From positions 1 to 20,462 of the forward strand of contig CALUHR010000011.1 in NCBI GenBank assembly GCA_944320495.1: 20,462 bases of DNA, in the 5' to 3' direction. The notes below the pieces were generated by a model. It saw only the letters and a list, made by a program, of their open reading frames with translations. It was not told the origin of the DNA and did not search any database. This document shows, in pieces, positions 754 to 15,940 of this stretch. The DNA is from Candidatus Methanomethylophilaceae archaeon. Its GTDB lineage: Archaea > Thermoplasmatota > Thermoplasmata > Methanomassiliicoccales > Methanomethylophilaceae. A program made the translations under genes and the position numbers. The number at the start of each line of letters is the position of its first letter. Within the stretch, counting starts at the first letter, position 1.

Positions 754-2007
754 ATGTCCATGGATCCCAAGCTGGAGGAGGTAATCAGAACCCACCCTTG
801 CTACTGCGAGGACGCCCACAGGAGCTTCGCCAGGATGCACCTCCCGGTGGCTCCGAGATGCAACATCCAATGCAACTTCTGCAACAGGAGGTTCGACTGC
901 TGCAACGAGTCGCGCCCCGGCGTAACCAGCGAGGTCCTCACCCCCGAGGCCGCTGCCGATAAGGTGGCCTATGTGAAGGAGAGGATCCCGAACCTCAGCG
1001 TCATAGGGATCGCTGGGCCGGGCGACCCTCTTGCCAACGAGGAGACGTTCCGCTCCATCGAACTGGTGCGCAAGAGGTTCCCAGACCTCACCCTCTGCAT
1101 ATCCACCAACGGGCTCGCCCTCCCCGACTGCGCCGATAGACTCTATGATCTCGGCGTCAGGTTCGTCACCGTCACGGTAAACGCTCTCACCCCGGAGACC
1201 GGCGCCGAGGTCTACGACTCCGTCGTCTTCGGCGGGAGGAGGCTGAGGGGCGTGGAGGGCGCATCCGTGCTCCTCTCCCGCCAGCTCGAGGGCATAGAGA
1301 GGTGCGCCTCGCTTGGCATGGCCGTAAAGGTGAACGTCGTGATGATCCCCGGAATCAACGACGGCGAGATACCGGACCTCGTCAAGAAGGTCAAATCCCT
1401 CGGAGCGTACATGGCCAACATACTCCCGCTGATCCCCGTCGAGGGGACCAGGTTCGCGGACCGCAGGGCCCCCACCCCGCAGGAGAGGAGGGAGATGATG
1501 GACCGCTGCGAGCTCGACGCCAGGATGATGCGCCACTGCCGCCAGTGCAGGGCCGATGCCATAGGCCTCCTCGGAGAGGACAGGTCCCCGGAGTTCGTCC
1601 ACATAGGCGGGTGCGGCTCCGGTTGCGGACCGCAGGGGGACGCCGTCGGCTGCGACGAGTCCGTCGTAGCCGTCGCCACCTCGGACGGCCGCACGGTCGG
1701 GGGGTTCGGCAACTCCACATCGTTCAGGGTCTACGCCACGGACGGCGGGACCTGCAGGTTCCTGAGAGAGGTCCCGGTCGACCTCACTCTACCTGTGTCG
1801 GGCGGCAGCCACCGCGACCACATCGAGAGGATCGCATCGTCCCTCGCCGGGTGCGGGACAGTCGTCGTCAGCGAGATCGGGGAGATGCCGTCCAGGGTGC
1901 TAGCCTCCAGGGGAGTCCGCGTCGTGAGGGCCTCCGGCGACGTCGACAGGGCCGTCCGCGACGCCCTCCGACGTCCCGACGAATGTATTATTAGTGACTC
2001 CGCATAG
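754..2007 (+). CDS. nifB: NifB radical-SAM Fe-S cluster biosynthesis protein with C-terminal NifX-like domain
   Basis: All NifB signature motifs present: HPC, CNIQCNFC (CX3CX2C), ESRPG, AGPGDPLAN, TVTVN, CRQCRADAIG. C-terminal domain VAVATSDG...F..Y...C.TVVVSEIG...L...G. Standard-code stop is TAG 2005-2007; an in-frame CGA at 1969-1971 may be the real end. Confidence 0.93.
   Translation: MSMDPKLEEVIRTHPCYCEDAHRSFARMHLPVAPRCNIQCNFCNRRFDCCNESRPGVTSEVLTPEAAADKVAYVKERIPNLSVIGIAGPGDPLANEETFRSIELVRKRFPDLTLCISTNGLALPDCADRLYDLGVRFVTVTVNALTPETGAEVYDSVVFGGRRLRGVEGASVLLSRQLEGIERCASLGMAVKVNVVMIPGINDGEIPDLVKKVKSLGAYMANILPLIPVEGTRFADRRAPTPQERREMMDRCELDARMMRHCRQCRADAIGLLGEDRSPEFVHIGGCGSGCGPQGDAVGCDESVVAVATSDGRTVGGFGNSTSFRVYATDGGTCRFLREVPVDLTLPVSGGSHRDHIERIASSLAGCGTVVVSEIGEMPSRVLASRGVRVVRASGDVDRAVRDALRRPDECIISDSA
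1980..1993 (+). promoter_or_regulatory. Putative alaS promoter (CGAATG-TATTATTA) inside the standard-code tail of nifB
   Basis: AT-rich TATA-like element ~40 nt upstream of alaS ATG 2032; GGTG Shine-Dalgarno-like site at 2022-2025. Confidence 0.45.
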
Positions 2008-2031
2008 CGGGCGCCATAACTGGTGTGCATC

Positions 2032-3810
2032 ATGGACGCTCAGCAGATGAGAGAGACCTACATCGACTTCTTCAAGGCGCGCGGACACACTCAGATCCAC
2101 TCCGCGCCCCTCATTCCGGAGAACGACCCCACCGTTCTCTTCACGACCGCGGGAATGCACCCGCTGGTGCCCTACCTCCTCGGGGAGAAGCACCCCGCCG
2201 GACGCAGACTCACGGACTTCCAGAAATGCGTGAGGACCGGTGACATCGACGAGGTCGGCGACGCCAGCCACCTCACGTTCTTCGAGATGCTCGGCAACTG
2301 GTCCCTCGGGGACTACTTCAAGAAGGAGTCCGTGGGATGGAGCTACGAGCTCCTCACCGAGGTGCTCCACATCGACCCGAACCACCTCGCCGTCACCTGC
2401 TTCAGGGGCGAGGACGGCATCCCCAGGGACGACGAGACCGCCGACCTCTGGAGGAGCCACGGCCTGAGGGACGACCAGATCTTCTTCTACGGAAGGGAGG
2501 ACAACTGGTGGGGACCCGCCGGCCAGACCGGACCCTGCGGACCCGACACCGAGATCTTCTACGACGACGGCAGGCCCAAATGCGGACCCGACTGCGGACC
2601 GTCATGCCACTGCGGCAAGTACACCGAGATCTGGAACAACGTCTTCATGGAGTACAACAAGCAGGCCGACGGGTCGTTCAAGCCCCTGGCCCAGAAGAAC
2701 GTCGACACCGGCATGGGCCTGGAGAGGATCCTCCGCGTCCTGAACGGCGTGGAGACCGTCTACGACACCCCCCTGTTCACCGGCATCATCGGCAGGATCG
2801 AGGAGATCTCCGGGAAGAGGTACAAGGAGGACCCCGAGGACGTCAAATCCTTCAGGGTCGTCGCCGACCATCTGAGGGCCGCCACCTTCATGCTCGGCGA
2901 CGGCGTCGTCCCGGCCAAGGTCGGACAGGGATACATCCTCAGGAGGCTCATCAGGAGGGCCAGCAGGTACCTCTCCAAGCTCGGGGTGGACGAGGTCTGC
3001 ATGCGCTCCATCGCCGAGGTCGTCGTCTCCGAGTACTCCGCGGCATACCCCGAGCTCGAGAGGAACAAGGAGACCATCTACTCCGCCCTCACCGCCGAGG
3101 AGGAGAAGTTCCACAAGACCCTGACCAAGGGCCTGCGCAGGTTCAACGAGATGATCGCCGAGGCAGGCGACTCCGAGACCCTCGACGGCGCCGCGGTGTT
3201 CCGCCTCTACGACACCTTCGGATTCCCCATCGAGCTGACCCAGGAGCTCGCCGCGGAGCAGGGCAGGAAGGTCGACGTCGCCGACTTCGAGAACCGCTTC
3301 AAGGCCCACCAGGAGAACTCCAGGATGGGCGCCGACCAGCAGTTCAAGGGAGGCCTCGCGGACCACGCGGTCGAGACCACCAAGCTCCACACCGCCACCC
3401 ACCTGCTCAACGCCGCCCTGAGGAAGATAGTGGACCCGTCCATCCAGCAGAGGGGGTCCAACATCACCGCCGAGAGGCTCAGATTCGACTTCAACCTCGA
3501 CAGGAAGGTCACCCCCGAGGAGCTCAAGGAGATCGAGAAGTACGTCAACGACGCCATCAAGGCCGCCATACCGGTCGTCTGCGAGGAGATGACCTACGAG
3601 CAGGCCAAGGAGCGTGGCGCCATCGGCGTGTTCACCGACAAGTACGGCGAGATGGTCAAGGTCTACACCATCGGCGACGTCTCCTGCGAGATCTGCGGCG
3701 GACCCCACGTGTCCAACACCTCCGAGCTCCAGGGCTTCAAGATCAAGAAGGAGGAGAGCTCCGCCGCCGGCATCCGCAGGATCAAGGCGGTCGTCGGCAA
3801 GTTCGACTGA
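2032..3810 (+). CDS. alaS: Alanine--tRNA ligase, short bacterial-type form (592 aa, no C-Ala domain)
   Basis: Motifs FTTAGMHPL, FQKCVRTGDI, TFFEMLGNWSLGDYFKKE, VDTGMGLER, GYILRRLIRRA, LYDTFGFP. Editing motifs HTATH and CGGPH present. Start ATG 2032 follows a GGTG SD (the track's 2023 is a GTG). Confidence 0.97.
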   Translation: MDAQQMRETYIDFFKARGHTQIHSAPLIPENDPTVLFTTAGMHPLVPYLLGEKHPAGRRLTDFQKCVRTGDIDEVGDASHLTFFEMLGNWSLGDYFKKESVGWSYELLTEVLHIDPNHLAVTCFRGEDGIPRDDETADLWRSHGLRDDQIFFYGREDNWWGPAGQTGPCGPDTEIFYDDGRPKCGPDCGPSCHCGKYTEIWNNVFMEYNKQADGSFKPLAQKNVDTGMGLERILRVLNGVETVYDTPLFTGIIGRIEEISGKRYKEDPEDVKSFRVVADHLRAATFMLGDGVVPAKVGQGYILRRLIRRASRYLSKLGVDEVCMRSIAEVVVSEYSAAYPELERNKETIYSALTAEEEKFHKTLTKGLRRFNEMIAEAGDSETLDGAAVFRLYDTFGFPIELTQELAAEQGRKVDVADFENRFKAHQENSRMGADQQFKGGLADHAVETTKLHTATHLLNAALRKIVDPSIQQRGSNITAERLRFDFNLDRKVTPEELKEIEKYVNDAIKAAIPVVCEEMTYEQAKERGAIGVFTDKYGEMVKVYTIGDVSCEICGGPHVSNTSELQGFKIKKEESSAAGIRRIKAVVGKFD

Positions 3811-3822
3811 AAAACATTATAA
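3809..3822 (+). promoter_or_regulatory. BRE/TATA promoter of the kinase-STAS pair (GAAAAAC-ATTATAA)
   Basis: Good match to archaeal BRE plus TATA, 25 nt upstream of ATG 3847. Confidence 0.6.
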
Positions 3823-3846
3823 CGCAGAGGGTCTAAGCGTGGGACG

Positions 3847-4332
3847 ATGTGCGGCTCTGACGAAGGGATCGCAAGCCCGGACGTCCCCTCGAGGGAGGTC
3901 CTGGGGACCACCGACTCGCCCGACGTGCTCGAGGTGCTCATGGAGGCGGACCGCCCCCAGGAGATCCTCGAGACCCTCTGCCAGTTCGCAGACGGTCACA
4001 CCGAGGACGAGAAGGCCAGGTACGTCTTCCGCCTGATCTGCGACGAGTTCCTCGAGAACATCGCCTCCTACGCGTACACGTCGGGCAACGGCCCCGTATA
4101 CGCGGCGGCGGATGCGAGGGACGGTCTGCGCGTGATCCTGATGGACAAGGGCGTCCCCTTCAACCCTCTGACCGACGCGAAGGTACCGGACGTCAACCTC
4201 CCGCTCGAGGAGAGAGAGGTCGGCGGATGCGGCATCCTGATCTCCCGGAAGTTCGCCAAGAGACTGGAGTACCGCAGGATCGGCGACTGGAACGTCACGA
4301 TAGCCGTAATCATCGAGGGGAGCGAGGACTGA
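3847..4332 (+). CDS. RsbW/SpoIIAB-like anti-sigma-type Ser kinase (HATPase_c fold)
   Basis: N-box DEFLENIASYAY, G1 DKGVPFNP, G2 GGCGILI, C-terminal EYRR.GDWNV; directly upstream of a STAS gene. Confidence 0.88.
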   Translation: MCGSDEGIASPDVPSREVLGTTDSPDVLEVLMEADRPQEILETLCQFADGHTEDEKARYVFRLICDEFLENIASYAYTSGNGPVYAAADARDGLRVILMDKGVPFNPLTDAKVPDVNLPLEEREVGGCGILISRKFAKRLEYRRIGDWNVTIAVIIEGSED

Positions 4333-4336
4333 TACC

Positions 4337-4630
4337 ATGGATTTCGAGACCACCGTCGAAGGGACAACCGTCACTGTGAAGGCATCCGGCAAGCTCGACT
4401 CGATCGGCGCCCAGGAGTTCTCCCAGGCCACCGACGGCCTGTCGAAGGGCATGAAGAGCATCGTCCTCGACTTCGAGGACGTCTCCTACGTGTCCAGCGC
4501 GGGACTCAGATCCGTCCTCAAGCTCAAGATGGGCAGCAAGGGCGTCGACCTCCGCATCGTCAAGGCGGGAGGCATGACGGCCGAGATCTTCAGGACAGCC
4601 GGTTTCGGCAGCCTCCTGAAGGACGCCTGA
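4337..4630 (+). CDS. STAS-domain anti-sigma-factor antagonist (RsbV/SpoIIAA-like)
   Basis: 97 aa with GKLDS, IVLDFEDVSYVSSAGLR (phosphoacceptor Ser region) and IF..AGF; GAGG SD at 4324-4327. Confidence 0.92.
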   Translation: MDFETTVEGTTVTVKASGKLDSIGAQEFSQATDGLSKGMKSIVLDFEDVSYVSSAGLRSVLKLKMGSKGVDLRIVKAGGMTAEIFRTAGFGSLLKDA

Positions 4631-4640
4631 GACCGCTAAC

Positions 4641-4669
4641 GCCGTCCGTCCGATGTCCCGGCGGACGGC
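4641..4669. terminator. GC-rich hairpin between convergent STAS and tRNA-Ala transcripts
   Basis: GCCGTCCG (4641-4648) is the perfect inverse complement of CGGACGGC (4662-4669). Confidence 0.45.
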
Positions 4670-4699
4670 ATACGCTCTCTCTTAGGAAGTTCACAGAAG

Positions 4700-4773
4700 T
4701 GGACTGAGCGAGATTCGAACTCGCGGCCTCCTGCTTGCAAAGCAGGCGATCTAACCAACTGATCTATCAGCCC
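4700..4773 (-). tRNA. tRNA-Ala (anticodon UGC), intronless, CCA not fully encoded
   Basis: Minus strand GGGCTGATAGATCAGTTGGTTAGATCGCCTGCTTTGCAAGCAGGAGGCCGCGAGTTCGAATCTCGCTCAGTCCA folds into a cloverleaf: anticodon arm CCTGC-TT-TGC-AA-GCAGG, GTTCGAA T-loop, G3:U70 pair and A73. Confidence 0.98.
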
Positions 4774-4799
4774 GTTGAGATGCCCTATCGGCGACCCCG

Positions 4800-4806
4800 T
4801 TAAATA
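4800..4806 (-). promoter_or_regulatory. Putative tRNA-Ala TATA box (TATTTAA on minus strand)
   Basis: AT-rich element ~27 nt upstream of the mature tRNA 5' end. Confidence 0.55.
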
Positions 4807-4942
4807 TCTTGCCATGGACCTGACCCCGTCTCCGACTCCCGGGATCCCATGTGCTCCCGGTTTTCGATGAATTAAAATCCAATCCTGCCTTGCCTCTCTT
4901 TAGATGCGTGCATGCGCGCAGGCGCGCGCGAGGGGCAGAACG

Positions 4943-4948
4943 TATATA
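4943..4948 (+). promoter_or_regulatory. Putative aro operon TATA box
   Basis: GCAGAACG-TATATA, followed by a GGTGA SD at 4973-4977 and ATG 4983. Confidence 0.55.
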
Positions 4949-4982
4949 CTGCTCCGTGTTAGCACGTAGCACGGTGAACGAT

Positions 4983-5780
4983 ATGATGTTCGGAAAGAGC
5001 GTGAGGCTTGAGAGGATCGTAGACAGGAATACGGGGAACTGCGTCATCGTCCCCATGGACCACGGGATCTCCATCGGACCCGTCGCCGGCCTCGTCGACA
5101 TGAAGAAGACCGTGGACGACGTCGCGAACGGCGGGGCCACCGCGGTCCTGATGCACAAGGGCCTCATCAGATACAGCTACAGGAGCAGCGGTCACGACAT
5201 CGGTCTGATCATGCACCTCTCCGCCTCCACCGACCTGGGGGTGACCAGCAACAGCAAGGTCCTCGTCGCAACCGTCGAGGAGGCGATCAAAGCCGGTGCG
5301 GACGCAGTCTCCGTGCACCTCAACGTGGGCGCGGAGACCGAGGGCGAGATGCTGGCCGACATCGGCCGCATCGCCAAGGAGTGCAACGACTGGGGCATGC
5401 CCCTCCTCGTCATGGCCTACGCCCGCGGACCCAAGATCCAGAACTCCTACGACCCCGTGGCCGTCGCCCACGCCGCCCGTGTCGCCACCGAGCTCGGAGC
5501 GGACATCGTCAAGTGCAGCTACACCGGCGACCCCGACTCCTTCAGGGAGGTCGTCAAGGGGGCCCTCGCTCCCATCGTCATCGCAGGCGGACCCAAGATG
5601 AACTCCGACAGGGAGATCCTCCAGATGGTCTACGACTCCATCCAGGCCGGAGGCCACGGCGTGTCCATCGGCAGGAACGTGTTCCAGCACTCCAACGTCG
5701 AGGGTATGACCAGGGCCATCTCCGACATCGTCCTCCACGGATACGACGTCGAGGAGTCCATGAAGAAGAACCTGAGCTGA
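4983..5780 (+). CDS. aroA': 2-amino-3,7-dideoxy-D-threo-hept-6-ulosonate (ADH) synthase (class I aldolase, MJ0400 type)
   Basis: VPMDHG, GADIVK (Schiff-base Lys), AGGPK, GRNVFQ; adjacent to DHQ synthase II. Start at 4983 or 4986 after the SD; the track's 4851 start is an upstream extension. Confidence 0.9.
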   Translation: MMFGKSVRLERIVDRNTGNCVIVPMDHGISIGPVAGLVDMKKTVDDVANGGATAVLMHKGLIRYSYRSSGHDIGLIMHLSASTDLGVTSNSKVLVATVEEAIKAGADAVSVHLNVGAETEGEMLADIGRIAKECNDWGMPLLVMAYARGPKIQNSYDPVAVAHAARVATELGADIVKCSYTGDPDSFREVVKGALAPIVIAGGPKMNSDREILQMVYDSIQAGGHGVSIGRNVFQHSNVEGMTRAISDIVLHGYDVEESMKKNLS

Positions 5781-6796
5781 TGCCGATGGACAAGGAGATC
5801 TGGATCAGGGCGGACATACCCGACGACGCGGAGAAGCGCAAGCAGCTCGTCCTCTCCGCGCTCGAATCGGGGATAGACACGGCGATCGTCAGACCCGGGG
5901 ACGACTTCGGCTCCCTCGGGAAGGTCAGACTGTTCGAGAACGACGGCGGGAAGCTCACGGGCAACTACGAGCTCGTGGCCCTCAGGACCCCCGACGACCA
6001 GGACAGGGCCATGGCTATGGCCGGCAAGAGGGCGGGGGTGATCCTCGACTCCTCCGACTGGACGGTCATCCCCCTCGAGAACCTCATAGCCAGGTTCAGG
6101 GACTCCGGCACCAGGGTCTACGCCTGCGCCGCCGACAGGGAGCAGGCCAAGCTCTACATGCAGACCCTGGAGAAGGGCGTCGACGGGATCGTCATCACCA
6201 CCGAGGACCCCAACGCCGTCAGGGGGTTCGCCGACATCATCTCCAGCAGCGCCGACGTCGAGCTCGTGCCCCTGGAGGTCACCGAGGTCAGGAACATCGA
6301 GATGGGCGACCGCGTCTGCGTCGACACCGTCTCCATGATGGAGCCGGGCGAGGGGATGCTCATCGGGTCCTCCGCGTCGTGCATGTTCCTCGTCCAGTCC
6401 GAGAGCGAGGACAACGGGTACGTGGCCGCCAGACCGTTCCGCGTCAACGCCGGGGCGGTCCACGCGTACGTCATGGGACCCGAGGGCAGGACCAGGTACC
6501 TCGCCGAGCTCAGATCGGGCGAGCCCGTCGTCCTCGTGAAGAGGGACGGGTCCACCCGCATATCCTCCGTGGGAAGATGCAAGATCGAGCAGAGGCCGCT
6601 CATCCTCATGAAGGCCACCGACGGCACCTCCACGTACTCCACGATCCTGCAGAACGCCGAGACCGTCAGGCTCGTGACCCCCGAGGGGTCCGTGTCCGTC
6701 GCCGCCCTGAAGAAGGGTGACAGGGTGCTCGCCAGGCTGGAGTCCGGCGGACGCCACTTCGGCATGAAGATCGAAGAGACCATCAGGGAGATCTGA
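5780..6796 (+). CDS. aroB': 3-dehydroquinate synthase II (NAD-dependent, MJ1249 type)
   Basis: GDRVCVDT, RPFRVNAGAVHAY, STILQNAETVRL, GRHFGMKIEETI. TGATG coupling with the upstream gene at 5778-5782; alternative start 5786. Confidence 0.93.
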   Translation: MPMDKEIWIRADIPDDAEKRKQLVLSALESGIDTAIVRPGDDFGSLGKVRLFENDGGKLTGNYELVALRTPDDQDRAMAMAGKRAGVILDSSDWTVIPLENLIARFRDSGTRVYACAADREQAKLYMQTLEKGVDGIVITTEDPNAVRGFADIISSSADVELVPLEVTEVRNIEMGDRVCVDTVSMMEPGEGMLIGSSASCMFLVQSESEDNGYVAARPFRVNAGAVHAYVMGPEGRTRYLAELRSGEPVVLVKRDGSTRISSVGRCKIEQRPLILMKATDGTSTYSTILQNAETVRLVTPEGSVSVAALKKGDRVLARLESGGRHFGMKIEETIREI

Positions 6797-8100
6797 TGAG
6801 GGTCTGCGCATCGCTGAGCTCCGTCTCGGAGCTCGACACTCCGACCAGGCTCGTGGAGATCCGCCTGGACCTCCTGGGCTCGGTCCCCGAGGACCCGAAG
6901 GGGCACGAGATGCTCGTGACCTTCCGCGGACCCGTGGACACCGGCGTCCTCCCCGAGGGGTTCTCCGGCATGATAGACATCGGCGAGGAGCACCGCCCCG
7001 AGACCTCCGCCACCGTGGTGGCGTCCCATCACGACTTCGAGGGCACGCCCACGGCGGAGCGCATCGGGTCCATCCTCTCCGGGATGGACTGCGACATAGC
7101 CAAGGGCGCCTTCTCCGTCGGCTCCTTCAGGGACCTCGTGAGCATCCTCGACGCCGCCAGGTCGCTGGGGAGGAGGCACGTGGTGCTCGGCATGGGCCCG
7201 CTCGGCACGATAACCCGCGTGAGGGCGGACATCCTCGGGAACGAGTTCAGCTTCGGATACGTCGGCGAGCCGACGGCTCCCGGACAGCTCAGCGCCGAGA
7301 GGATGGAGAGGCTGCCGGACGGATGCACCGTGCTCGGGATCGTCGGGAGGCCGCTCTCCAAGAGCAGGTCCCCGGCCATGCACAACGCGGCCCTGGAGGC
7401 CGCCGGGATCGACGGCATATACCTGCCGTTCGAGGCGGACGACCTGGACCAGGTGGAGGAGGTCGTGCGCGGATACGGCATCCGCGGGCTCAACGTCACC
7501 ATACCGTACAAGATCGACATCATGGACCACCTCGACGCCGTGACGGCCGACGCCTCCGCCATGGGGGCGGTCAACACCGTGGTCAACGAGGACGGCAGGC
7601 TCGTCGGGCACAACACCGACGTGGCCGGGGTCCGCAACGCCCTGTCCAGGGCGGGCATCGAGGCCGAGGACGGCCGCGTGCTCATCATGGGATCCGGAGG
7701 GGCCGCCAGGGCGATCGCCCACTGCGCCGCCGGGATGGGCTGCGACATCACCGTCACCGGAAGGAACGCCGAGACCGGGTCCGAGCTCGCCTCGGACTTC
7801 GGAGGCGTCTACCGCGACCCGAAGTCCGTATCCGTGATGATGTACGACCTGATCGTCAACTGCACCCCGGTGGGCATGTACTCCGACGGACCGTATCCCG
7901 TGGACATATCGCGCATCCAGAGGGGACAGGCCGTGTTCGACATGGTCTACGGCCGCGAGACCCCTCTGATCAGGCGCGCCAGGGAGGTCGGGTCGCCGGC
8001 AGCCACCGGCGAGGACATGCTGGCCGGCCAGGGGGCCGAGTCCTTCAGGCTCTGGACGGGCATCGATGGCATGTTCGACACCATGAGGGCCGTCCTATGA
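6796..8100 (+). CDS. aroDE: Fused type I 3-dehydroquinate dehydratase / shikimate dehydrogenase
   Basis: N-domain EIRLD, SHHDF, DIAK, MGPLG..TR, APGQL. C-domain SRSPAMHN, NVTIPYK, GAVNT, NTD, GSGGAAR, VNCTPVGM, DMVY, GEDMLAGQG. TGATG coupling at 6794-6798. Confidence 0.93.
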   Translation: MRVCASLSSVSELDTPTRLVEIRLDLLGSVPEDPKGHEMLVTFRGPVDTGVLPEGFSGMIDIGEEHRPETSATVVASHHDFEGTPTAERIGSILSGMDCDIAKGAFSVGSFRDLVSILDAARSLGRRHVVLGMGPLGTITRVRADILGNEFSFGYVGEPTAPGQLSAERMERLPDGCTVLGIVGRPLSKSRSPAMHNAALEAAGIDGIYLPFEADDLDQVEEVVRGYGIRGLNVTIPYKIDIMDHLDAVTADASAMGAVNTVVNEDGRLVGHNTDVAGVRNALSRAGIEAEDGRVLIMGSGGAARAIAHCAAGMGCDITVTGRNAETGSELASDFGGVYRDPKSVSVMMYDLIVNCTPVGMYSDGPYPVDISRIQRGQAVFDMVYGRETPLIRRAREVGSPAATGEDMLAGQGAESFRLWTGIDGMFDTMRAVL

Positions 8101-8936
8101 CATCGGTCGGCAGGTCCCACGGCTCCATAACGGTGATAAACGCCATGCCCAGCGGCATAGGGGCCACCATCGGAGTCGCCCTGAAGACCGAGGCGAGGTT
8201 CGCCGTCGGAGGGGACGCCAGAGAGGTCAGGATCGCCAGCGATGCGGGCGAGGACCCGACCATGGCGGCGATATGCGTGCGCAGGGCCTACGAGGCCGCC
8301 GGGATCCCCGAGCCGGACGGCTGGACGCTGGAGACGTCCTCGGAGATACCCGTGTCCAGAGGGCTCAAGAGCAGCAGCGCCGCCTGCAACGCCATCATCA
8401 GGGCCGTGTTCGCGGAGATCGGACACCGCATGGACCCCGTCGACCTCATCAGGCTCGGGGTCGGATGCGCCAGGGAGGCCAAGGTCACCGTCACCGGGTC
8501 CTTCGACGACGCCTGCGGATGCGGGCTCGGAGGCCTGGTCATGACCGACAACCGGAGGGACGAGATATTGGACAGGTCGGACATCGGCGAGTACGATGTC
8601 GTCATCCACGTCCCCCGCTTCAAGATCAGGAAGTCCTCGATGCCCGTCGAGGCGCTCCGCGCCGCGGCGCCGGAGCTCGAGGAGGCCGTGGACATCGCCA
8701 TGACCGACCCCTTCAGAGCCATGACGATCAACGGGCGCGTCATATCGAGGGTCCAGGACGTGGACAACTCCCTCGCGGAGAGGGCCGTGTCCATGGGGGC
8801 CCTGGGAGCGGGGATGTCCGGGTCCGGCCCCGCCATAGCCATCGTCGTGCCGCACGGCGACGGGCGGTCCTTCGCCCGCGACCTCGGCACGGATCCGGAG
8901 GAGACCATCATGACAACCACGAGGTGCGGCGAATGA
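8097..8936 (+). CDS. aroK: Archaeal shikimate kinase (GHMP family)
   Basis: ITVINAMPSGIGA, PVSRGLKSSSAA, TGSFDDA, AGMSGSGPA; ATGA overlap with aroDE at 8097-8100. Confidence 0.93.
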   Translation: MTSVGRSHGSITVINAMPSGIGATIGVALKTEARFAVGGDAREVRIASDAGEDPTMAAICVRRAYEAAGIPEPDGWTLETSSEIPVSRGLKSSSAACNAIIRAVFAEIGHRMDPVDLIRLGVGCAREAKVTVTGSFDDACGCGLGGLVMTDNRRDEILDRSDIGEYDVVIHVPRFKIRKSSMPVEALRAAAPELEEAVDIAMTDPFRAMTINGRVISRVQDVDNSLAERAVSMGALGAGMSGSGPAIAIVVPHGDGRSFARDLGTDPEETIMTTTRCGE

Positions 8937-10294
8937 CAAGTATAGCGTTCCGCGGAGGGGAGATATCCGGAAGGATATCCCCGCCGCCGTCCAAGAGCCA
9001 CACACACCGGGCCGTGTTCCTGGCCTCGATGGCCGAGGGGCGCTCGGAGCTCTCTAACTGCCTGCTTTCTGCCGACACGCTGGCCACCATGGACGCCTGC
9101 AGGGCGATGGGCGCATCGGTGTCGCTGGAGGGACAGGACGCGACCGTCGACGGAGGGGACCTCAGGGCCCCCGCCGCGCCGATCGACGCCATGAACTCCG
9201 GGACCACCATGAGGATACTGACCGGCATATGCTCGTCGTTCGACCGCCCGGTCACCATCACCGGGGACGAGTCCCTAAGGAAGAGGCCCATGGGCCCCCT
9301 CCTGCAGGCCCTGGGATCCTGCGGGGTCGCCTGTTCGTCCAACGGAGGCCTCCCCCCTGTGACCGTCCAGGGACCGAACCGCGGTGGCCCGGTGTCCATA
9401 GACGGGAGCGTCAGCTCCCAGTTCATCACATCCCTGATGCTCACCGCGCCCCTGCTGAGGGACGGGTCCGTCATCACCATCGAGGGCGACCCGGTGTCGG
9501 CCCCCTACCTGGACGTCACCTCGCACATGATGAGGCTGTACGGCGCCGAGGTCCGCAGGGACGGCAACGTGTTCGAGATCCCCGGCACCGGATACACCCC
9601 ATACGACTACGGCGTCCCGGCGGACTTCTCGTCCGCGGCGTTCCCCATGGTGGCCGCCGCTCTGGGCGGCGAATGCACCGTGACGGGGATGGATCCCGCC
9701 GACCCGCAGGGCGACAAGATGATCGTCGACATCCTGCGCATGGCGGGTGCCGATGTAACCGTAGACGGCCGCGAGGCCCGCGTGAGGGCGGGTCCGCTCA
9801 AGCCGTGCGAGATAGACATGGGGCAGGTCCCGGACCTGTTCCCGGTCACGGCGGTGCTGCTGAGCACCGCGGAGGGGGAGAGCCGGCTGTACGGCGCTCC
9901 CCAGCTGAGGTTCAAGGAGAGCGACCGCATCGAGACCACCGTCCGCATGATCAACGCCCTGGGAGGCGACGCGGAGGGGACCGAGGACGGGTGCATCATC
10001 CACGGCGTGGGACGTCTGAGGGGCGGGAGCGTGGAGCACCACGGCGACCACCGCATCATGATGTCCGCGGCCGTGGCGTCCGTCGTCTGCGACGGACCCG
10101 TCACCATGGCCGACCCGGAGTGCGCGGCCGTATCCTTCCCCGGATTCCCGGCGGCGATGGCGGGCATCGGCCTGAGATCGGAGGTCCAGCGATGTACCAG
10201 TTCGGAACCAGGCTCAGGTTCACGCTCTTCGGCAGGAGCCACGGCCCCTGCGTCGGGGGCATCCTCGAAGGCGTCCCGACGGGATTCGCCATAG
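8933..10294 (+). CDS. aroA: 3-phosphoshikimate 1-carboxyvinyltransferase (EPSP synthase)
   Basis: PPSKSHTHR, NSGTTMR, GDESLRKRPM, SSQFITSLML, KESDRI, GDHRI, SFPGF. ATGA overlap with aroK at 8933-8936. The standard-code end (TAG 10292-10294) creates a 103-nt overlap with aroC; in-frame CGA 10190-10192 would give a 419-aa protein. Confidence 0.95.
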   Translation: MTSIAFRGGEISGRISPPPSKSHTHRAVFLASMAEGRSELSNCLLSADTLATMDACRAMGASVSLEGQDATVDGGDLRAPAAPIDAMNSGTTMRILTGICSSFDRPVTITGDESLRKRPMGPLLQALGSCGVACSSNGGLPPVTVQGPNRGGPVSIDGSVSSQFITSLMLTAPLLRDGSVITIEGDPVSAPYLDVTSHMMRLYGAEVRRDGNVFEIPGTGYTPYDYGVPADFSSAAFPMVAAALGGECTVTGMDPADPQGDKMIVDILRMAGADVTVDGREARVRAGPLKPCEIDMGQVPDLFPVTAVLLSTAEGESRLYGAPQLRFKESDRIETTVRMINALGGDAEGTEDGCIIHGVGRLRGGSVEHHGDHRIMMSAAVASVVCDGPVTMADPECAAVSFPGFPAAMAGIGLRSEVQRCTSSEPGSGSRSSAGATAPASGASSKASRRDSP

Positions 10295-11271
10295 ACATGG
10301 ACGCGGTCGCGGAGGAGATGAGGCTCCGCAGACCCGTCGGAGGGATCGGCACGCCAAGGAGGGAGGCTGACGTCCCGGAGTTCGTCCAGGGCATCACGGA
10401 CGGGCGCGCCACCGGCCAGCCCATCCTCATAAAGATAGCGAACGGGAACACCGACGGCTCGAAGTACGCCGCGTTCTACGACACCCCGCGCCCGGGCCAT
10501 GCGGACCTGCCGGCGCTGCTGAAGTTCCCGGACCACGACCTGAGCGGCAGCGGCCAGTTCTCGGGCAGGCTGACCGCGGCCATCGTCGCCGCCGGGGCCG
10601 TCGCCAAGCAGATCATCGCGGAGAAGGGCGTCTCCGTCGACGCCTTCACCCGCTCGGTCGGCGAGGTGGCCGACGGCTCGGTGCGCACCGCCGCGGAGGC
10701 CCGCGGATCCCGCGCCTTCGCCACCCGCGCATGCACCCAGCGTCTCGACGACGCCATGAGGGACCACATCGAGAGGGTCGGCGCCTCCCGCGACAGCGTC
10801 GGGGGCACCGTCGAATGCATCGTCTCCGGGCTGCCCATAGGCTTCGGAGGTATCTGGTTCGAGGCCCTGGACGCAGAGCTGGCACATGCGATGTTCGGCA
10901 TCCCGGCGTGCAAGGGCGTCGAGTTCGGGGACGGATTCGAGCTCGCGGCCATGCGCGGGTCGCAGTCCAACGACGCGTACCGCATGGACGGCGGCAGGAT
11001 AGTCACCGCGAGCAACCACATGGGCGGCATCGTTGGCGGCATGTGCGACGGGGCGCCGGTCGTCCTCAGGGTCGCGTTCAAACCGACCCCTTCGATAGGC
11101 GTAGAACAGAGGACCATCAACCTCAGGACCGGGACCGACGACACGGTCACGGTCGAGGGTAGGCACGACCCCTGCATCGTCCCCCGGGCGGTGGCGGTCG
11201 TGGAGGCCATGGCTGCTCTGACCGTGGCAGATCAGATTGCGAGGGGATTCCGATGGGATTGGATTCTATAA
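10192..11271 (+). CDS. aroC: Chorismate synthase
   Basis: FGRSHG, RPGHAD, SGRLTA, DSVGG, KGVEFG, SNHMGGI.GG, KPTPSI, GRHDPC; GGAGGT SD at 10180-10185. Standard stop TAA 11269-11271; in-frame CGA at 11251-11253. Confidence 0.95.
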   Translation: MYQFGTRLRFTLFGRSHGPCVGGILEGVPTGFAIDMDAVAEEMRLRRPVGGIGTPRREADVPEFVQGITDGRATGQPILIKIANGNTDGSKYAAFYDTPRPGHADLPALLKFPDHDLSGSGQFSGRLTAAIVAAGAVAKQIIAEKGVSVDAFTRSVGEVADGSVRTAAEARGSRAFATRACTQRLDDAMRDHIERVGASRDSVGGTVECIVSGLPIGFGGIWFEALDAELAHAMFGIPACKGVEFGDGFELAAMRGSQSNDAYRMDGGRIVTASNHMGGIVGGMCDGAPVVLRVAFKPTPSIGVEQRTINLRTGTDDTVTVEGRHDPCIVPRAVAVVEAMAALTVADQIARGFRWDWIL

Positions 11272-12305
11272 GGGATGAGATAGCCGAGGTCGACAGAGGA
11301 ATCCTCGAGCTGATGAAACGCAGGCTGGAGCTCGCCCGCATGGTGGGCGAGGAGAAGGTCAGGACCGGCGCCGCCGTGAGGAACGCTGCGCAGGAGGACA
11401 GGGTCGCCGACAGGTACAGGGGCTTCGCCCTGGAGAACGGCATGAACCCCGTCTGCGCCGAGAGGGTGTGCCGCATCCTCATGCAGGAGTCCGTCGACCT
11501 CCAGGCGTCCATGCCCCGGCCGGCCGAACATGCCCGCCATGTGGCGGTCATCGGCGGCTACGGGAAGATGGGGCGCTGGATGGCGGACCTCCTGAGGAGC
11601 TCCGGCCACAGGGTCGACATCATCGACCCCTCCGCGGGGAACGGCCTGAGGACCGAGGACGCCAAGTGGGCCGACACGGTGATCGTCTCCATCCCCATAT
11701 CCCGCACCGGGGGCATGCTCCGGAAGCTGGACGGGATCTGCGGACCCGACACGCTGATCCTGGACATCGCCTCCCTCAAATCGCCGTTCATCGACGTGCT
11801 CAGGGAGCTGGGCTCCCGCAGGAGGGTGTGCTCCGTGCACCCCATGTTCGGACCGTCAGCGGAGTCCATGCATGACAGGAACCTCGTGGTCTGCGACTGC
11901 GGGTCCCGCGAGGCGGTGGATGACGCCCTGTCCCTGTTCGGGAACCACGGCGCCAACATCCGCACGATGCCCGTGGAGGATCACGACAGGTACATGTCCT
12001 ACGTCCTGGGGCTGAGCCATGCGGTCAACATCGCGTTCTTCACGGCTCTGGACAGGAGCGGGATATCGTTCCGCGACATGGAGTCGGTCGCCTCGACCAC
12101 GTTCGAGAAGATGATGGACACCAACCAGTCCGTCGCCCTCGAGGACCCCTACCTCTACTACGAGATCCAGCACATGAACTCCTCCCGCGAGACCATGCTG
12201 AAGGAGTTCGACAGCGCCGTCCACGACGTGGTGGAGGCCGCCCTGAGCGACGACCCCTCCGCGTTCAAGGAGCTAATGGACAGGGGACGCGAGTACTTCA
12301 CCTGA
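11253..12305 (+). CDS. tyrA: Bifunctional chorismate mutase / prephenate dehydrogenase
   Basis: AroQ-type N-domain (LDSIRDEIAEVDR.IL.L...R....K...R...E). PDH domain with VIGGYGKMG, DIASLK, SVHPMFGP, HDRYMSYVLGLSH. Confidence 0.9.
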   Translation: MGLDSIRDEIAEVDRGILELMKRRLELARMVGEEKVRTGAAVRNAAQEDRVADRYRGFALENGMNPVCAERVCRILMQESVDLQASMPRPAEHARHVAVIGGYGKMGRWMADLLRSSGHRVDIIDPSAGNGLRTEDAKWADTVIVSIPISRTGGMLRKLDGICGPDTLILDIASLKSPFIDVLRELGSRRRVCSVHPMFGPSAESMHDRNLVVCDCGSREAVDDALSLFGNHGANIRTMPVEDHDRYMSYVLGLSHAVNIAFFTALDRSGISFRDMESVASTTFEKMMDTNQSVALEDPYLYYEIQHMNSSRETMLKEFDSAVHDVVEAALSDDPSAFKELMDRGREYFT

Positions 12306-13839
12306 GGGGGGCCATCCCCCTCAGGGTCCCGAACACCGGCATCATGCCGGCCATGACCGAGCGGCGGTCCTCGTACATCGAGCGGTACATCCGGGTGTTC
12401 TCCGGATCGGGTCTGAAGGACCTGTCGACCACCGCCGCCCCTTCCAGCGTGCCCACGAGATCTGGAAGGTCGCCGACGGCATGGGCCGCCATGGCGCAGT
12501 CCGTCATCACCGCACCTCCGCGGGTGCGCATGACCACCGCCTCGCTTCCGATCATATCGGCCTTTATCTGGTTCCACAGGTCGTTGGCGCTCCCGCCCTC
12601 GGCTATCGTGATCCTGCTCAGGTCCACGCCGGCGACGCGGTACTCGTCGGTCACCCCGATGTAGTCGAAGCCTATCGCCTCCAGGACCGAGCGCCACATG
12701 GCCCCGCGTCCGGAGTCCAGGGTGAGATTGAGGAACGCCCCGCTGGCGTCGGCCTCGCTCCCGTAGCCTCCCGTCAGATACGGGAGGAACGTCACCCCGT
12801 TGGAACCCGCCGGAACCTCGGAGGCCTCCGCGGTGAGGGTGTCGTAGTCCGCGCTCCCGGCGCAGACGCTGTCCCTGAACCATCTGAGGGACAGCCCGCC
12901 GGTGCGGATGTACCCCCAGTAGAAGTACGAATCGTCCAGGGAGCCGCTGTTGAAAATCAGGCCCTTGCCGTGAGCGCTGAGCTCGGGGATGATCCCGTCG
13001 GTAGACGCGCAGAACATGGCGCATGTGCCGGCCACGTCGGCGGCCATCCCGGGGCGGAACATCCCGCAGCCCAGCATGGACTGCATGGTGTCGCCGGCGC
13101 CCGCGCATATGGGGGTCCCCGCGGGGACGCCGGTGCGCTCTGCCATCTCCCTCGTGAGCCCCCCGACGATGTCCCAGGGCTTCAGGATGCGGGGCATCAT
13201 CGACGGGTCGATGCCCAGGATCGACAGCTGCTCCTCGGACCACCTCTTGCGCATGACGTCGTATCCAAGCCCCCAACCGGACATGGCACCCTGGTCGATG
13301 AAGGCGTCCTCCGCCCTCAGGTCGGCCAGATGCATGAGGATGTACGGGGCGTTGTGGACGAACTTCGCCCCTTCGTCGGAGAACCCGGGCACGTTTGACT
13401 GGAACCATCTGGCGAAGAGCGCCGGGAACATGCAGCTGGCGTCCGCGTTGCCTGTCTCCTCGCCCCATATGGACAGACCCATGGCATTTATGGCGTCGGC
13501 ATCCTCCTGGGTGCGGGAGTCCAGATAGTTGACGTAGGGAGTGATCGACCGTCCGTCGGCATCCACCCCGGTGATCCCGCAGATGATGCCGTCGCCCATG
13601 ACGGCGCGGATGCCCGACGGGTCCAGGCCCTTGGACGTCATCTGCTCGGTGCACGCCCTCATCCCGGTCACGGTCAGCGAGAGGTACTCGTCCGGATCCA
13701 TCTCGACCATGCGGGGACCGGGATGGCGTATGGTGGTCATGCCGTCCCATACCGCAATGCACTGAAGATCGGAATCGTACACAGACACCTTGACGCTCTG
13801 GGTGCCGGCATCGAACCCCATGTAGAACCTCTCGCCCAT
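12298..13839 (-). CDS. FGGY-family carbohydrate kinase (xylulokinase-like), substrate unknown
   Basis: N-terminal GFDAGTQSVK (DxGTxS), GAGDTMQS, GTCAMF, FLPYL.G, R.VLEAI, GGS.NDLWNQIKAD; 513 aa; TTTTA element ~23 nt upstream of the ATG. Confidence 0.9.
   Translation of the reverse strand: MGERFYMGFDAGTQSVKVSVYDSDLQCIAVWDGMTTIRHPGPRMVEMDPDEYLSLTVTGMRACTEQMTSKGLDPSGIRAVMGDGIICGITGVDADGRSITPYVNYLDSRTQEDADAINAMGLSIWGEETGNADASCMFPALFARWFQSNVPGFSDEGAKFVHNAPYILMHLADLRAEDAFIDQGAMSGWGLGYDVMRKRWSEEQLSILGIDPSMMPRILKPWDIVGGLTREMAERTGVPAGTPICAGAGDTMQSMLGCGMFRPGMAADVAGTCAMFCASTDGIIPELSAHGKGLIFNSGSLDDSYFYWGYIRTGGLSLRWFRDSVCAGSADYDTLTAEASEVPAGSNGVTFLPYLTGGYGSEADASGAFLNLTLDSGRGAMWRSVLEAIGFDYIGVTDEYRVAGVDLSRITIAEGGSANDLWNQIKADMIGSEAVVMRTRGGAVMTDCAMAAHAVGDLPDLVGTLEGAAVVDRSFRPDPENTRMYRSMYEDRRSVMAGMMPVFGTLRGMAPLR
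12301..12325. terminator. Perfect 10-bp hairpin at the tyrA/FGGY convergent overlap
   Basis: CCTGAGGGGG (12301-12310), loop GCCAT, CCCCCTCAGG (12316-12325). Confidence 0.5.
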
Positions 13840-13899
13840 GAGCGTTCGGAGAAGGTATGAGTAAAAGGTTTTTGGTAGGTCCCCAGAATCCTGGTAGGT

Positions 13900-15363
13900 T
13901 CAGAGGTACTTACGGTAGTCGTACCTGCCGTCCCTGACGCGGGCGTTGACCTCGTCGGAGATCCTCTCGAGATCCCCGGGCTCGAAGAGTCCGGACGTTA
14001 TGTCACGGAACCCCTGCGAGGACATCATGTGCACCGAGCACGACGACACTCCGAACCTCCTGCCTATGGGGCCAGAAGCGACCTCGGTGTACTGGACCTT
14101 GTCGTAGTTGATGTACTCGACGGAGAGGTCGTAGGACCCGTGGACGATGAGGAACGAATCCTCGCCCATGCACACTGCACGGTGCCTCTGTGCCAGGACC
14201 ACACGGCCGGCGATGAGGATGACGAGGAGCAATGGCACGGCCACGAGCAGAGTGAGCGCCGTGGCGCTCCAGAACGGTGTGAGCGTGTCCGCGAACTCTA
14301 CCGCATATCCGCTGATGAACCCGAAGGACACCAGGATGACGACGGCCAGGATGAGGTTGGCGATGGCCATCGCCTTCAGCGCCCCGCGGGGCTGATGCTC
14401 CGGCTCTGGCTCGAAGTACAGCTCGGGGACCAGCCTCCCGAGCAGGTCCTCCACCTCCCTCCGGTCCTTTAGCGGGCAGAGTATCGGCATGTTCTCGTTC
14501 TCCTCCCCCATGCCGACGACCTCGGCCTCGAGGACCGAGCGTCCGATGAGCCTGGCGAAGATCGGGGACCTTAGGCGGACGGAGTTCACCTTGTTGACCT
14601 TGAAGGACCTGCGAGTGTGGGTGAACATGCCGCTCTCGACGGTGATCGTGTCCCCCAAGCGATAGACCCTGTAGTTGTAGTACTTCAGGATCGAGGATAT
14701 CAGCGGCAGGATGTAGGACACGAGCATCAGGATGACGGCTGTCAGCAGACCGCCTGAGCTCTCATAGAACAGCGAAATCACAGCATAGATCAGCATCACC
14801 AGTCCGAACAGCTGCTGACCGGTGGGCTGACCCAGGGCCGCGTTCAGGATGACGTCCCTGTTGGTGACCAGGATCATCGTGGACTCCAGGAGCTCCGTCT
14901 CGACGGTCGTCTCCTTGGAGAAGATCCTGGAGTTTAGCTCGTCGCGGAGACGGTCCGCCTCCGCCCTCTTCAGGACCAGGGTGGCCTCTGCCGCGGTGGC
15001 GTTGACGCTGCTGTTGACGTTGAACATCAGCGCGGACGTCCCGAAGATCATGTTGAAGATGTCCCTCCTGACGGTGACGGAGGCCAAGCGGGTGTACTGG
15101 ATGTGCTTGTCGGACTTGGTCAGTAGCATGTCCCTGACCACGTTCAGCTCCGTCGGCGTGAACGTGTACACGGTCCTCCTCCAGAGGGCCACACAGTAGA
15201 GGAACACCAATGCCGTCAGCACCGCGACCAGGGTCAGCGTCTTAGTGAGGCCGTCGACCACATCGATGACGTTCAGGATCACGAACAGCACCACCGCAGC
15301 GGCGAAGGCTTGGCTGACCAGGACGGTCGGATGGTTACGGAGGGTTATCGACTCGTCTCCCAT
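13900..15363 (-). CDS. YdbT-like membrane protein with multiple bacterial PH (bPH_2/DUF304) domains
   Basis: Alternating hydrophobic hairpins and bPH-type segments (YTF...V.R.ML...I.Y.R..SV; YRVYR...G.F...R.F...KVNSV; INYDKVQ.TEV..GPI.RRFG). Start MGDESITL at 15363, preceded by a GGAGAGG SD; the track's 15735 start is an extension. Confidence 0.8.
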   Translation of the reverse strand: MGDESITLRNHPTVLVSQAFAAAVVLFVILNVIDVVDGLTKTLTLVAVLTALVFLYCVALWRRTVYTFTPTELNVVRDMLLTKSDKHIQYTRLASVTVRRDIFNMIFGTSALMFNVNSSVNATAAEATLVLKRAEADRLRDELNSRIFSKETTVETELLESTMILVTNRDVILNAALGQPTGQQLFGLVMLIYAVISLFYESSGGLLTAVILMLVSYILPLISSILKYYNYRVYRLGDTITVESGMFTHTRRSFKVNKVNSVRLRSPIFARLIGRSVLEAEVVGMGEENENMPILCPLKDRREVEDLLGRLVPELYFEPEPEHQPRGALKAMAIANLILAVVILVSFGFISGYAVEFADTLTPFWSATALTLLVAVPLLLVILIAGRVVLAQRHRAVCMGEDSFLIVHGSYDLSVEYINYDKVQYTEVASGPIGRRFGVSSCSVHMMSSQGFRDITSGLFEPGDLERISDEVNARVRDGRYDYRKYL

Positions 15364-15890
15364 CGGTCCCTCTCCTTGAGCATCCTGACGACGCTCTGGT
15401 TCAGCCTGCCGGCTATGTCCTCGGCGACGTCCTCCTCCAGATGCTCTATGGTCACGGACCCTCCGGCGGTGGTGATCATCACGTCCGCCAACCCGAAGGC
15501 GCGGTTGATGGGACCGCGGGATACGTCGACCTGATGGATCCTCTCGATGGGGACCATCGTATGGGTGATGAAGACGATACCCTTCCTGAGGTCCGCCTTC
15601 TCGTCGTCGATCCTGTACCTGTAGCGCCTGTAGATTATCTCGGGAGCCGCCAGGCAGTACACCGCCGTGACGACGATTATCACGACAGAGAGGACCTGCA
15701 CCGGGAAGGCCCACGTGCCCAGAACATCTGGCCATATGAACGGTGTGGAGAATATCGCCGCGACTATGACGATGGCGATGACGTTGGCGATGTACATCGC
15801 CTTCTTGCTGACAGGTGCGAGTCTGCGATACCCGTCGAACGTCAGACCGTTCTCGTCTACCGCGAACTCGTCACGAGTGCTCAATCCCAT
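15345..15890 (-). CDS. YdbS-like membrane protein with one bPH_2 domain
   Basis: Two TM segments, then YRRYRYRID....LRKGIVF...T.VP..RI.QVDVSRGPI.R.FGLA.V.I.TAGG. Start 15890 is favoured by the TATA at 15919-15914. Standard stop TAA 15347-15345; in-frame CGA at 15365-15363. Confidence 0.88.
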   Translation of the reverse strand: MGLSTRDEFAVDENGLTFDGYRRLAPVSKKAMYIANVIAIVIVAAIFSTPFIWPDVLGTWAFPVQVLSVVIIVVTAVYCLAAPEIIYRRYRYRIDDEKADLRKGIVFITHTMVPIERIHQVDVSRGPINRAFGLADVMITTAGGSVTIEHLEEDVAEDIAGRLNQSVVRMLKERDRWETSR

Positions 15891-15913
15891 GCATCCGCGT
15901 TCGTACGGCATCG

Positions 15914-15927
15914 TATATAGAATTTGG
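15914..15927 (-). promoter_or_regulatory. Putative ydbS-ydbT promoter (CCAAATTC-TATATA)
   Basis: TATATA 24 nt upstream of ATG 15890 with a BRE-like flank. Confidence 0.55.
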
Positions 15928-15929
15928 CC

Positions 15930-15940
15930 GGGGGGGGGGG
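15930..15940. repeat. G11/C11 homopolymer tract
   Basis: Eleven consecutive G at 15930-15940, directly seen. Confidence 0.9.

Follow-up and report, generated by a model that had tools for sequence, protein, structure and literature searches.

The window analyzed here, 20,462 nucleotides in length, is contig C11 (CALUHR010000011.1) of the genome of a Candidatus Methanomethylophilaceae archaeon, and it carries four genes whose reading frames appear to end at CGA, an arginine (Arg) codon in the standard genetic code. The source genome, designated G000 (other G-numbers denote relatives), is a metagenome-assembled genome of 1.77 Mb in 14 contigs, 90.6% complete with 1.8% contamination, and has a guanine-plus-cytosine (GC) content of ~62%. 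Sequencing runs that contain its sequence come from chicken and bird gut. The clade belongs to the family Methanomethylophilaceae of the order Methanomassiliicoccales, and its nearest named relative is Candidatus Methanoprimaticola sp. MG2, with which the archaeal release factor aRF1 shares 91% identity.

The four genes encode a NifB-like radical SAM protein, the products of aroA (EPSP synthase) and aroC (chorismate synthase), and a bPH_2 protein of the YdbS type (Table 1). A first-pass annotation had placed CGA codons, beginning at positions 1969, 10190, 11251 and 15365, at the points where these four folds end. Domain assignments bear this out. The last Pfam domain stops 2–15 residues short of each CGA (domain end/CGA residue: Nitro_FeMo-Co, 404/406; EPSP synthase, 627/640; chorismate synthase, 349/354; bPH_2, 168/183), and beyond each CGA lies a tail that runs to TAG or TAA. 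At three of the four sites the sequence reads CGATG, and the A of the CGA is common to the ATG of the next gene (positions 10192, 11253 and 15363). The genes that start in this way are aroC after aroA, a chorismate mutase/prephenate dehydrogenase gene after aroC, and a second bPH_2 gene after the first. The annotation had likened these junctions to TGATG couplings at 5778–5782 and 6794–6798, both of which agree with the coordinates of the open reading frames (ORFs).

Our own gene calls for the window comprise 19 genes with 6,377 codons, 441 of which specify Arg (AGG, 249; CGC, 134; AGA, 30; CGT, 18; CGG, 10). As the annotation had noted from reading the genes by eye, no in-frame CGA lies inside any of them, whereas 556 CGAs are found out of frame. 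Chance would predict about nine internal CGAs, given that 2.1% of aligned Arg codons are CGA in a relative that uses this codon. Fifteen of the 19 genes end in TGA, which matches the earlier count, and the remaining four end in CGA.

Table 1. Coordinates of the genes and codons discussed in the text (positions in the window unless a genome and contig are given).
Feature	Location	Strand	Details
NifB-like radical SAM gene	754..1968	+	405 codons, ends at CGA; Pfam Radical_SAM and Nitro_FeMo-Co
CGA ending NifB-like gene	1969-1971	+	followed by 11 codons and TAG 2005-2007; tail 1972..2007
aroA (EPSP synthase)	8933..10189	+	Pfam EPSP_synthase
CGA ending aroA	10190-10192	+	followed by 33 codons and TAG 10292-10294; tail 10193..10294 lies inside aroC
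aroC (chorismate synthase)	10192..11250	+	353 codons; Pfam Chorismate_synt 8-349
CGA ending aroC	11251-11253	+	followed by 5 codons and TAA 11269-11271
Chorismate mutase/prephenate dehydrogenase gene	11253..12305	+	ends in TGA; Pfam CM_2, PDH_N and PDH_C
bPH_2 (YdbS-like) gene	15366..15911	-	182 codons, ends at CGA; Pfam bPH_2 94-168
CGA ending bPH_2 gene	15365-15363	-	followed by 5 codons and TAA 15347-15345
Second bPH_2 gene	13903..15363	-	downstream of the first, CGATG-coupled; Pfam bPH_2
aRF1 gene	G000:C2:85936-87195	-	locus L001 437-1696 (-)
gmhA-CGA-gmhB	G000:C13:193621-194700	-	locus L003 322-1401 (-); SIS domain and HAD domain
tRNA-Arg(UCG)	G000:C13:413317-413390	+	
tRNA-Arg(UCG)	G015:C1:1444187-1444260	-	

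The same gene ends were examined in genomes of the same genus. For the NifB-like gene, 29 of 30 orthologs have their first stop-like codon at -2 to +4 codons relative to the position seen here (TGA, 21; CGA, 7; TAA, 2). Alignments of the aroC orthologs reach residue 351–353. In 30 loci, including that of the source genome, the codon at the exact position of the aroC end is CGA (21), TGA (4) or TAA (5), and TG always follows; the aroA/aroC junction in 30 orthologs is mainly CGATG or TGATG. For the bPH_2 gene, 29 orthologs could be read, and in 27 the end falls on the identical codon position (TGA, 22; CGA, 6; TAA, 1). Thus, at all four ends CGA swaps with the canonical stops TGA and TAA among orthologs of the same genus. 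In its pattern of sequence exchange, CGA evolves as a member of the set of stop codons.

DNA contigs from an independent chicken-gut run are identical to positions 10997–12272 and 14024–15935 of the window. Coverage of the four sites by RNA is thin; one metatranscriptome contig spans 10166–10408 and differs from the DNA at four places, the positions of which are unlisted. By Pfam assignment the genes of the window are archaeal in character. Beyond those in Table 1 they include genes for AlaRS, an anti-sigma-type kinase, a STAS protein, an FGGY kinase, IlvD, S10, aEF1A and aEF2, as well as an archaeal shikimate pathway composed of ADH synthase, DHQS-II, aroD/E, aroA, aroC and the chorismate mutase/prephenate dehydrogenase gene. 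The ATG of aroA (8933–8935) overlaps, as ATGA, the TGA (8934–8936) of the preceding 279-codon gene (8097–8933). A tRNA-Ala(UGC) gene (4699–4773, minus strand) lies between the STAS gene and a gene for a DeoC-family aldolase.

The behavior of CGA in the window extends to the whole of G000. Counted by decile along stop-to-stop ORFs, in-frame CGAs number 407, 166, 46, 27, 6, 9, 18, 35, 88 and 300, whereas CGT is nearly flat across the middle deciles. When ORFs are scored on either side of the first CGA in their second half, the mean codon log-odds is +0.357 before the codon and -0.348 after it (n = 149; 85% negative after the codon); with ten other rare codons taken as controls, the log-odds stays positive. 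Coding signal on both sides was detected for 13 of 730 testable CGAs, compared with 990 of 1,748 CGTs. The coding DNA of G000 holds 44,933 out-of-frame CGAs, while its ~32,000 internal Arg codons are devoid of CGA where base composition predicts ~1,100 in frame. Avoidance is therefore confined to the reading frame and hence acts through translation.

Genes were called across the genome with a crude codon-model gene caller of our own. When CGA is admitted as a fourth stop, the model yields 1,663 genes that cover 86.4% of the genome as coding, compared with 1,535 genes and 82.6% under three stops. These genes end in TGA (1,176), CGA (410; 25%), TAA (52) or TAG (18). CGA is unevenly distributed among them: it accounts for 36% of stops in the 40% of genes with the weakest codon bias but for 3.3% in the most strongly biased decile. 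A canonical in-frame stop is present within five codons downstream of 23% of CGA ends, as against 16% of TGA ends. CGATG coupling is found at 89 of the 410 CGA ends (22%), as against TGATG at 7% of TGA ends. At the position after the terminal CGA (+4), T is favored (54%) and A is avoided (8%). Together, the enrichment in weakly codon-biased genes, the backup stops and the coupling figures fit a weaker, leaky terminator that is shunned by highly expressed genes.

Relatives of the source genome show how widely this state extends. The proteins of G000 were compared by tblastn with 140 related loci and with 400-kb pieces of four other genomes. Same-genus loci contain 0–1 CGA per 54–448 aligned Arg codons. 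In G075, a control genome that uses CGA, 104 of 4,912 Arg codons are CGA and 62 of those align to Arg. In the genus, CGA is thus absent from the interiors of conserved genes, the known exceptions being two conserved sites, in the aRF1 gene and between gmhA and gmhB, described below. We scored 400-kb pieces with codon models trained on homology-defined codons, in which CGA was treated as neutral. Allowing four stops raised the coding score by 7.2% in G000 (GC 0.62), where CGA supplied 103 of 384 ends, and by 6.5% in the more distant G073 (GC 0.61), where it supplied 107 of 379 (28%). The gain was 0.2% in G015 of the same genus (GC 0.56), with 17 of 384 ends at CGA (~4%). The score changed by -0.7%, and hence showed no gain, in G074 (GC 0.43) and by -2.8% in the CGA-using control G075. 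Two other procedures were rejected. An all-against-all blastp comparison of six-frame ORFs from 80 related loci aligned wrong-frame ORFs and produced spurious "conserved" CGAs, and self-trained codon models for the 400-kb pieces collapsed in the case of G074 and settled on incorrect frames in that of G000.

Avoidance of CGA is widespread in the Methanomethylophilaceae, and its GC-rich members use CGA heavily as a stop; the CGA-stop pattern covers the genus of G000 and at least one further lineage. In a tree of the single gene aRF1, the CGA-free state is patchy and appears in at least three clades, with support too weak for its origins to be counted. That CGA stops are frequent in GC-rich genomes fits a change from TGA to CGA under GC pressure once CGA is able to terminate.

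The first-pass annotation had raised the possibility that no tRNA reads CGA. This must be rejected, since all CGA-free genomes examined possess a gene for tRNA-Arg(UCG): G000, more than 30 genomes of the same genus, G015, G073 and G074. A search by BLAST and a YTTCGR pattern had indicated loss of the gene in G008, G015 and G005, which was refuted when the 43 Rfam tRNA hits of the complete G015 genome were found to include it. The anticodon arm of this tRNA is abnormal in the genus. In the subclade of G000, an A-A or C-A mismatch between positions 31 and 39 shortens the anticodon stem to 4 base pairs; the same positions pair in the other four Arg tRNAs of G000 and are canonical in the UCG tRNAs of two CGA-using relatives. 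In the subclade of G015 (G015, G008, G005, G007 and G031), the anticodon loop reads C-C-U-C-G-A-C, with C33 in place of the near-universal U33. Both the 31-39 mismatch and C33 are highly unusual for an elongator tRNA. The C33 tRNA is conserved in the five genomes together with a compensatory change in the stem. Conservation with compensatory stem changes indicates that tRNA-Arg(UCG) is functional.

A use for such a tRNA may be found in the gene for aRF1 itself. This gene contains an in-frame CGA 20 residues past the NIKS motif, where the eRF1_1 domain has the conserved Arg of the SIAARLKTY stretch. Of 15 readable same-genus genomes, 14 have CGA at this site and nowhere else in the gene; overall, the aRF1 gene holds a single CGA in 51 CGA-free loci. 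Other CGA-free lineages carry their single CGA at other sites (NIKS-33 or NIKS-47), and in these loci it is usually the only CGA among 84–375 aligned Arg codons. CGA-using families of the same order have CGC, CGT, CGG, AGA or AGG at the SIAARLKTY site and scattered CGAs elsewhere. Since aRF1 contributes ~8% of the aligned codons, it is unlikely that its possession of the single CGA would recur by chance. The codon after the CGA is always CTN, so that all 38 distinct sequences have C at +4, and the codon before the CGA is mostly the rare GCT. Downstream RNA folding at the site gave unremarkable z-scores, and no stimulatory structure was detected. The frame is continuous across the CGA, without a programmed +1 frameshift, and escape from termination must therefore occur by read-through.

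The second site lies between gmhA and gmhB (Table 1). Of 30 same-genus genomes, 29 have CGA as the codon at this junction and one has AGA, while adjacent synonymous sites vary. In the fused arrangement gmhB has no start codon ahead of its HAD motif. In another subclade, gmhA and gmhB are separate and gmhA stops at TAA. A functional aRF1, and any GmhB at all from the fused arrangement, thus require that CGA be read, presumably as Arg. Locus L004 (G000:C5:178082-179083, plus strand) has a further in-frame CGA flanked by coding signal on either side and may represent two genes or read-through; its upstream part ends in KLSRNTE, its downstream part is a hydrophobic helix, and neither has a Pfam match.

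On this evidence we are highly confident that CGA serves as a fourth codon for translation termination, weak and leaky, in this archaeon and its genus. The annotation's proposal of a candidate new code in which CGA stops translation is thereby supported at the level of the window, of the genome and of the genus. The terminal role that it assigned to CGA stands, but it did not foresee that CGA would be read through in aRF1 and gmhA-gmhB, which makes the codon leaky or dual in function rather than a clean stop.

How would such a codon work? Most probably, to judge from the sequences, two outcomes compete at CGA in the ribosomal A site: peptide release by aRF1 and decoding by the retained but impaired tRNA-Arg(UCG). 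The single aRF1 of the cell would accept CGA as a first-base variant of UGA, and the tRNA, with its abnormal anticodon arm, would be a poor decoder. Release would usually win, and CGA would have been purged from the interiors of genes. Under GC pressure, changes from TGA to CGA would accumulate at the ends of weakly expressed genes. The residual read-through as Arg may have been exploited at a few conserved sites. In the aRF1 gene, low termination activity would allow more aRF1 to be made, closing a feedback loop by read-through that resembles that of prfB; at gmhA-CGA-gmhB, the product would be GmhA plus some GmhA-GmhB fusion. The sequences themselves establish where coding stops, the lack of internal CGA, its exchange with TGA and TAA, the presence and peculiarities of the tRNA and the conserved in-frame CGAs; from these we infer peptide release by aRF1, a hypomorphic tRNA and regulatory roles for both conserved read-through sites. 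The lineage-specific changes sit on the side of the tRNA, while the side of aRF1 would offer a predisposition at most. The combined picture, in which a genuine fourth stop is joined by a weakened tRNA, self-sensing by aRF1, protein ratios set by read-through, occurrence in several lineages and a share of stops set by GC content, seems to us somewhat favored.

Several observations weigh against this reading. A cognate tRNA is retained, which a clean stop would not need, and in G073 this tRNA has a normal anticodon stem of 5 base pairs despite 28% CGA ends. The release factor offers no diagnostic substitution: NIKS and YxCxxxF are intact in G000, and neither these motifs nor the GTS loop distinguishes the aRF1s of CGA-free genomes from those of CGA-using ones. 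The YxCxxxF motif of G000 reads Y-R-C, as it does in CGA-using relatives, so this feature is insufficient alone and at most a predisposition. A change from Gly to Ser in the GTS loop (S-T-E) is confined to G000 and the near-identical G018 (loci L005 and L006); other relatives have G-T-E, with one exception of N-T-E. The semi-diagnostic columns of the aRF1 alignment (N or H versus E before PPEP, C versus S, and Q versus S) are confounded by phylogeny. Acceptance of CGA by aRF1 is the best-fitting candidate among the annotation's alternatives. The gene calls that underlie the genome-wide figures are home-made, and low-scoring calls may inflate the share of CGA in the classes of low codon bias. 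Finally, the low proportion of CGA ends in G015 and the lack of gain in G074 suggest that part of the clade may merely avoid CGA.

Among other explanations, the one that survives best is that CGA is effectively unassigned or slow, so that ribosomes stall there and are rescued through splitting by aPelota/ABCE1 and peptidyl-tRNA hydrolysis or drop-off, with no recognition of CGA by aRF1. We consider this unlikely, though a serious competitor. The tRNAs of the genus, with a 4-base-pair stem or C33, are expected to be weak in decoding. The recognition motifs of aRF1 lack a diagnostic change, each genome contains a Pelota-like second match, and the avoidance of CGA ends by highly codon-biased genes is what a costly form of termination would produce. 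That cost, however, would be heavy if a quarter of the genes depended on rescue, and the CGATG junctions parallel those at TGATG, where termination and reinitiation require that termination be orderly. Stalling also gives no part to aRF1, whereas the lone conserved CGA in the gene for a release factor, found at different sites in several lineages, points to aRF1 as the sensor. Moreover, eRF1 of yeast does release peptide at CGA (PMC7379694).

Release at CGA must also be compared with a second and highly improbable explanation, in which CGA is plain Arg and TGA stops are lost to CGA in a GC-rich genome where short extensions are tolerated. The concentration of CGA ends in weakly codon-biased genes and in the GC-rich genomes G000 and G073 (27–28% of genes), as opposed to their rarity in G015 and G074, would suit such drift, and GC pressure may indeed explain the frequency of CGA stops, a part of the annotation's stop-loss alternative that can be kept. 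Stop loss leaves unexplained, however, why CGA is missing from internal Arg codons throughout the genome and why it survives in aRF1 and gmhA-gmhB alone. Normal internal levels of CGA were sought in the aligned conserved genes of the genus and were not found. Several tails extend for at least 33 codons and into the next gene in another frame, and CGA is kept at the same terminal codon across many species, swapping there with TGA and TAA.

A third possibility, that terminal CGA is converted into UGA by C-to-U editing of mRNA while the code stays standard, seems still less credible. CGA and UGA are one transition apart and the DNA data are compatible with editing. Nevertheless, an enzyme that spared the tens of thousands of out-of-frame CGAs in coding DNA would need to recognize the reading frame and also to pass over the conserved in-frame CGAs in aRF1 and gmhA-gmhB, and the context of terminal CGAs is loose, as the modest preference for T at +4 shows. 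We know of no C-to-U editing of mRNA in archaea. Finally, G000 is metagenome-assembled, but an artefact of assembly or consensus, or contamination, which the annotation had listed last, can be set aside because the pattern recurs in more than 60 independently assembled species genomes, single-contig ones included, and because two of the four sites are covered by independent DNA contigs of identical sequence.

Termination at CGA by a factor of the eRF1 family has a precedent in yeast. There, eRF1/eRF3 releases peptide at CGA in competition with tRNA (Wada and Ito 2018, PMC7379694). A single CGA at the end of a gene is detectably read as a stop, and the L123R, L123F and L123Y substitutions in eRF1 enhance the reaction (PMC7379694). 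Position 123 is the x of YxCxxxF (PMC4482090). The likeness is twofold: release by an eRF1-type factor is pitted against an inefficient Arg tRNA, and the enhancing Arg at x matches the Y-R-C of aRF1 here. The two cases differ in that the yeast reaction is a minor one observed on reporters, whereas in the archaeon CGA is apparently the fixed end of a quarter of the genes.

Sense codons have become stops in organelles (NCBI tables 2, 22 and 23), and there, as here, the codon leaves gene interiors and sits at gene ends. Examples are AGA/AGG in vertebrate mitochondria, which like CGA had specified Arg, TCA in Scenedesmus mitochondria and TTA in Thraustochytrium mitochondria. Organellar reassignments involve tiny genomes that encode about a dozen proteins and lack the cognate tRNA. 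CGA, in contrast, resides in the chromosome of a free-living archaeon, ends ~410 genes, retains its tRNA and is kept at conserved read-through sites; its sense use is not wholly lost, inasmuch as a functional aRF1 and the GmhA-GmhB fusion need it to be decoded.

The aRF1 gene invites comparison with prfB, which encodes RF2. In both, the gene for a release factor holds an in-frame codon at which its own product terminates, and synthesis of the full-length protein depends on failure of termination; for aRF1, both termination by its own product and this regulation are what the sequence would predict. They differ in that prfB employs a +1 frameshift at a slippery site with a Shine-Dalgarno element, while the frame of aRF1 is unchanged. 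In ambiguous codes, such as those of Condylostoma (table 28) and Blastocrithidia (table 31) and the use of UAG for pyrrolysine in methanogens (PMC12626013), one codon likewise has two outcomes, and its place and competition set whether translation terminates or an amino acid is inserted. For Blastocrithidia, one report (PMC13092985) names a tRNA with a 4-base-pair anticodon stem as part of the mechanism. A stem of that length is likewise found in tRNA-Arg(UCG) of the G000 subclade, the comparison being one of shape alone. The direction of change is opposite: there standard stops gained a sense meaning, and here a sense codon gained a stop.

Full-text searches of the literature turned up no description of CGA as a stop in this clade. 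CGA goes unmentioned in a 2025 study of how the Methanomethylophilaceae use stop codons, and the changes of CGA recorded in the Codetta survey are all from one sense to another. In a 2026 preprint (10.64898/2026.04.02.715157), Melnykov described two archaeal assemblies that lack CGA in recognized domains and raised the possibility that CGA is a stop. Those assemblies represent unrelated archaea from hydrothermal vents in which CGG specifies Trp and no tRNA(UCG) was found. According to the author, the method cannot infer stops, and the preprint presents no evidence from terminal codons (10.64898/2026.04.02.715157). The abnormal arm of tRNA-Arg(UCG), the CGA in aRF1, gmhA-CGA-gmhB and the avoidance of CGA stops in strongly biased genes are newly described here.

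The number of genes that end in TAG falls from 77 under three stops to 18 of 1,663 under four. Beyond those TAGs the frame stays open for a median of 121 codons, which fits the known usage of pyrrolysine and TAG in the order. This suggests that published figures for TAG usage are inflated by CGA tails.

If CGA terminates as proposed, annotations of these gut methanogens under table 11 would place the 3' ends of about a quarter of genes wrongly, which would create false extensions and false overlaps, cause genes to be missed and skew stop-codon statistics. The drop in TAG ends bears on analyses of pyrrolysine and TAG usage in the Methanomethylophilaceae. Tools for code inference that do no more than assign amino acids are blind to changes from sense to stop. 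The clade would also provide a natural system in which to study how factors of the eRF1 family discriminate the first base of a stop codon. To our knowledge, a change from sense to stop has not been established for any free-living organism, and the use of CGA described here would, if true, be the first. It would further constitute a present-day intermediate that combines stop and sense meanings, so that an ambiguous intermediate and codon capture could be tested against each other as routes by which the code changes.

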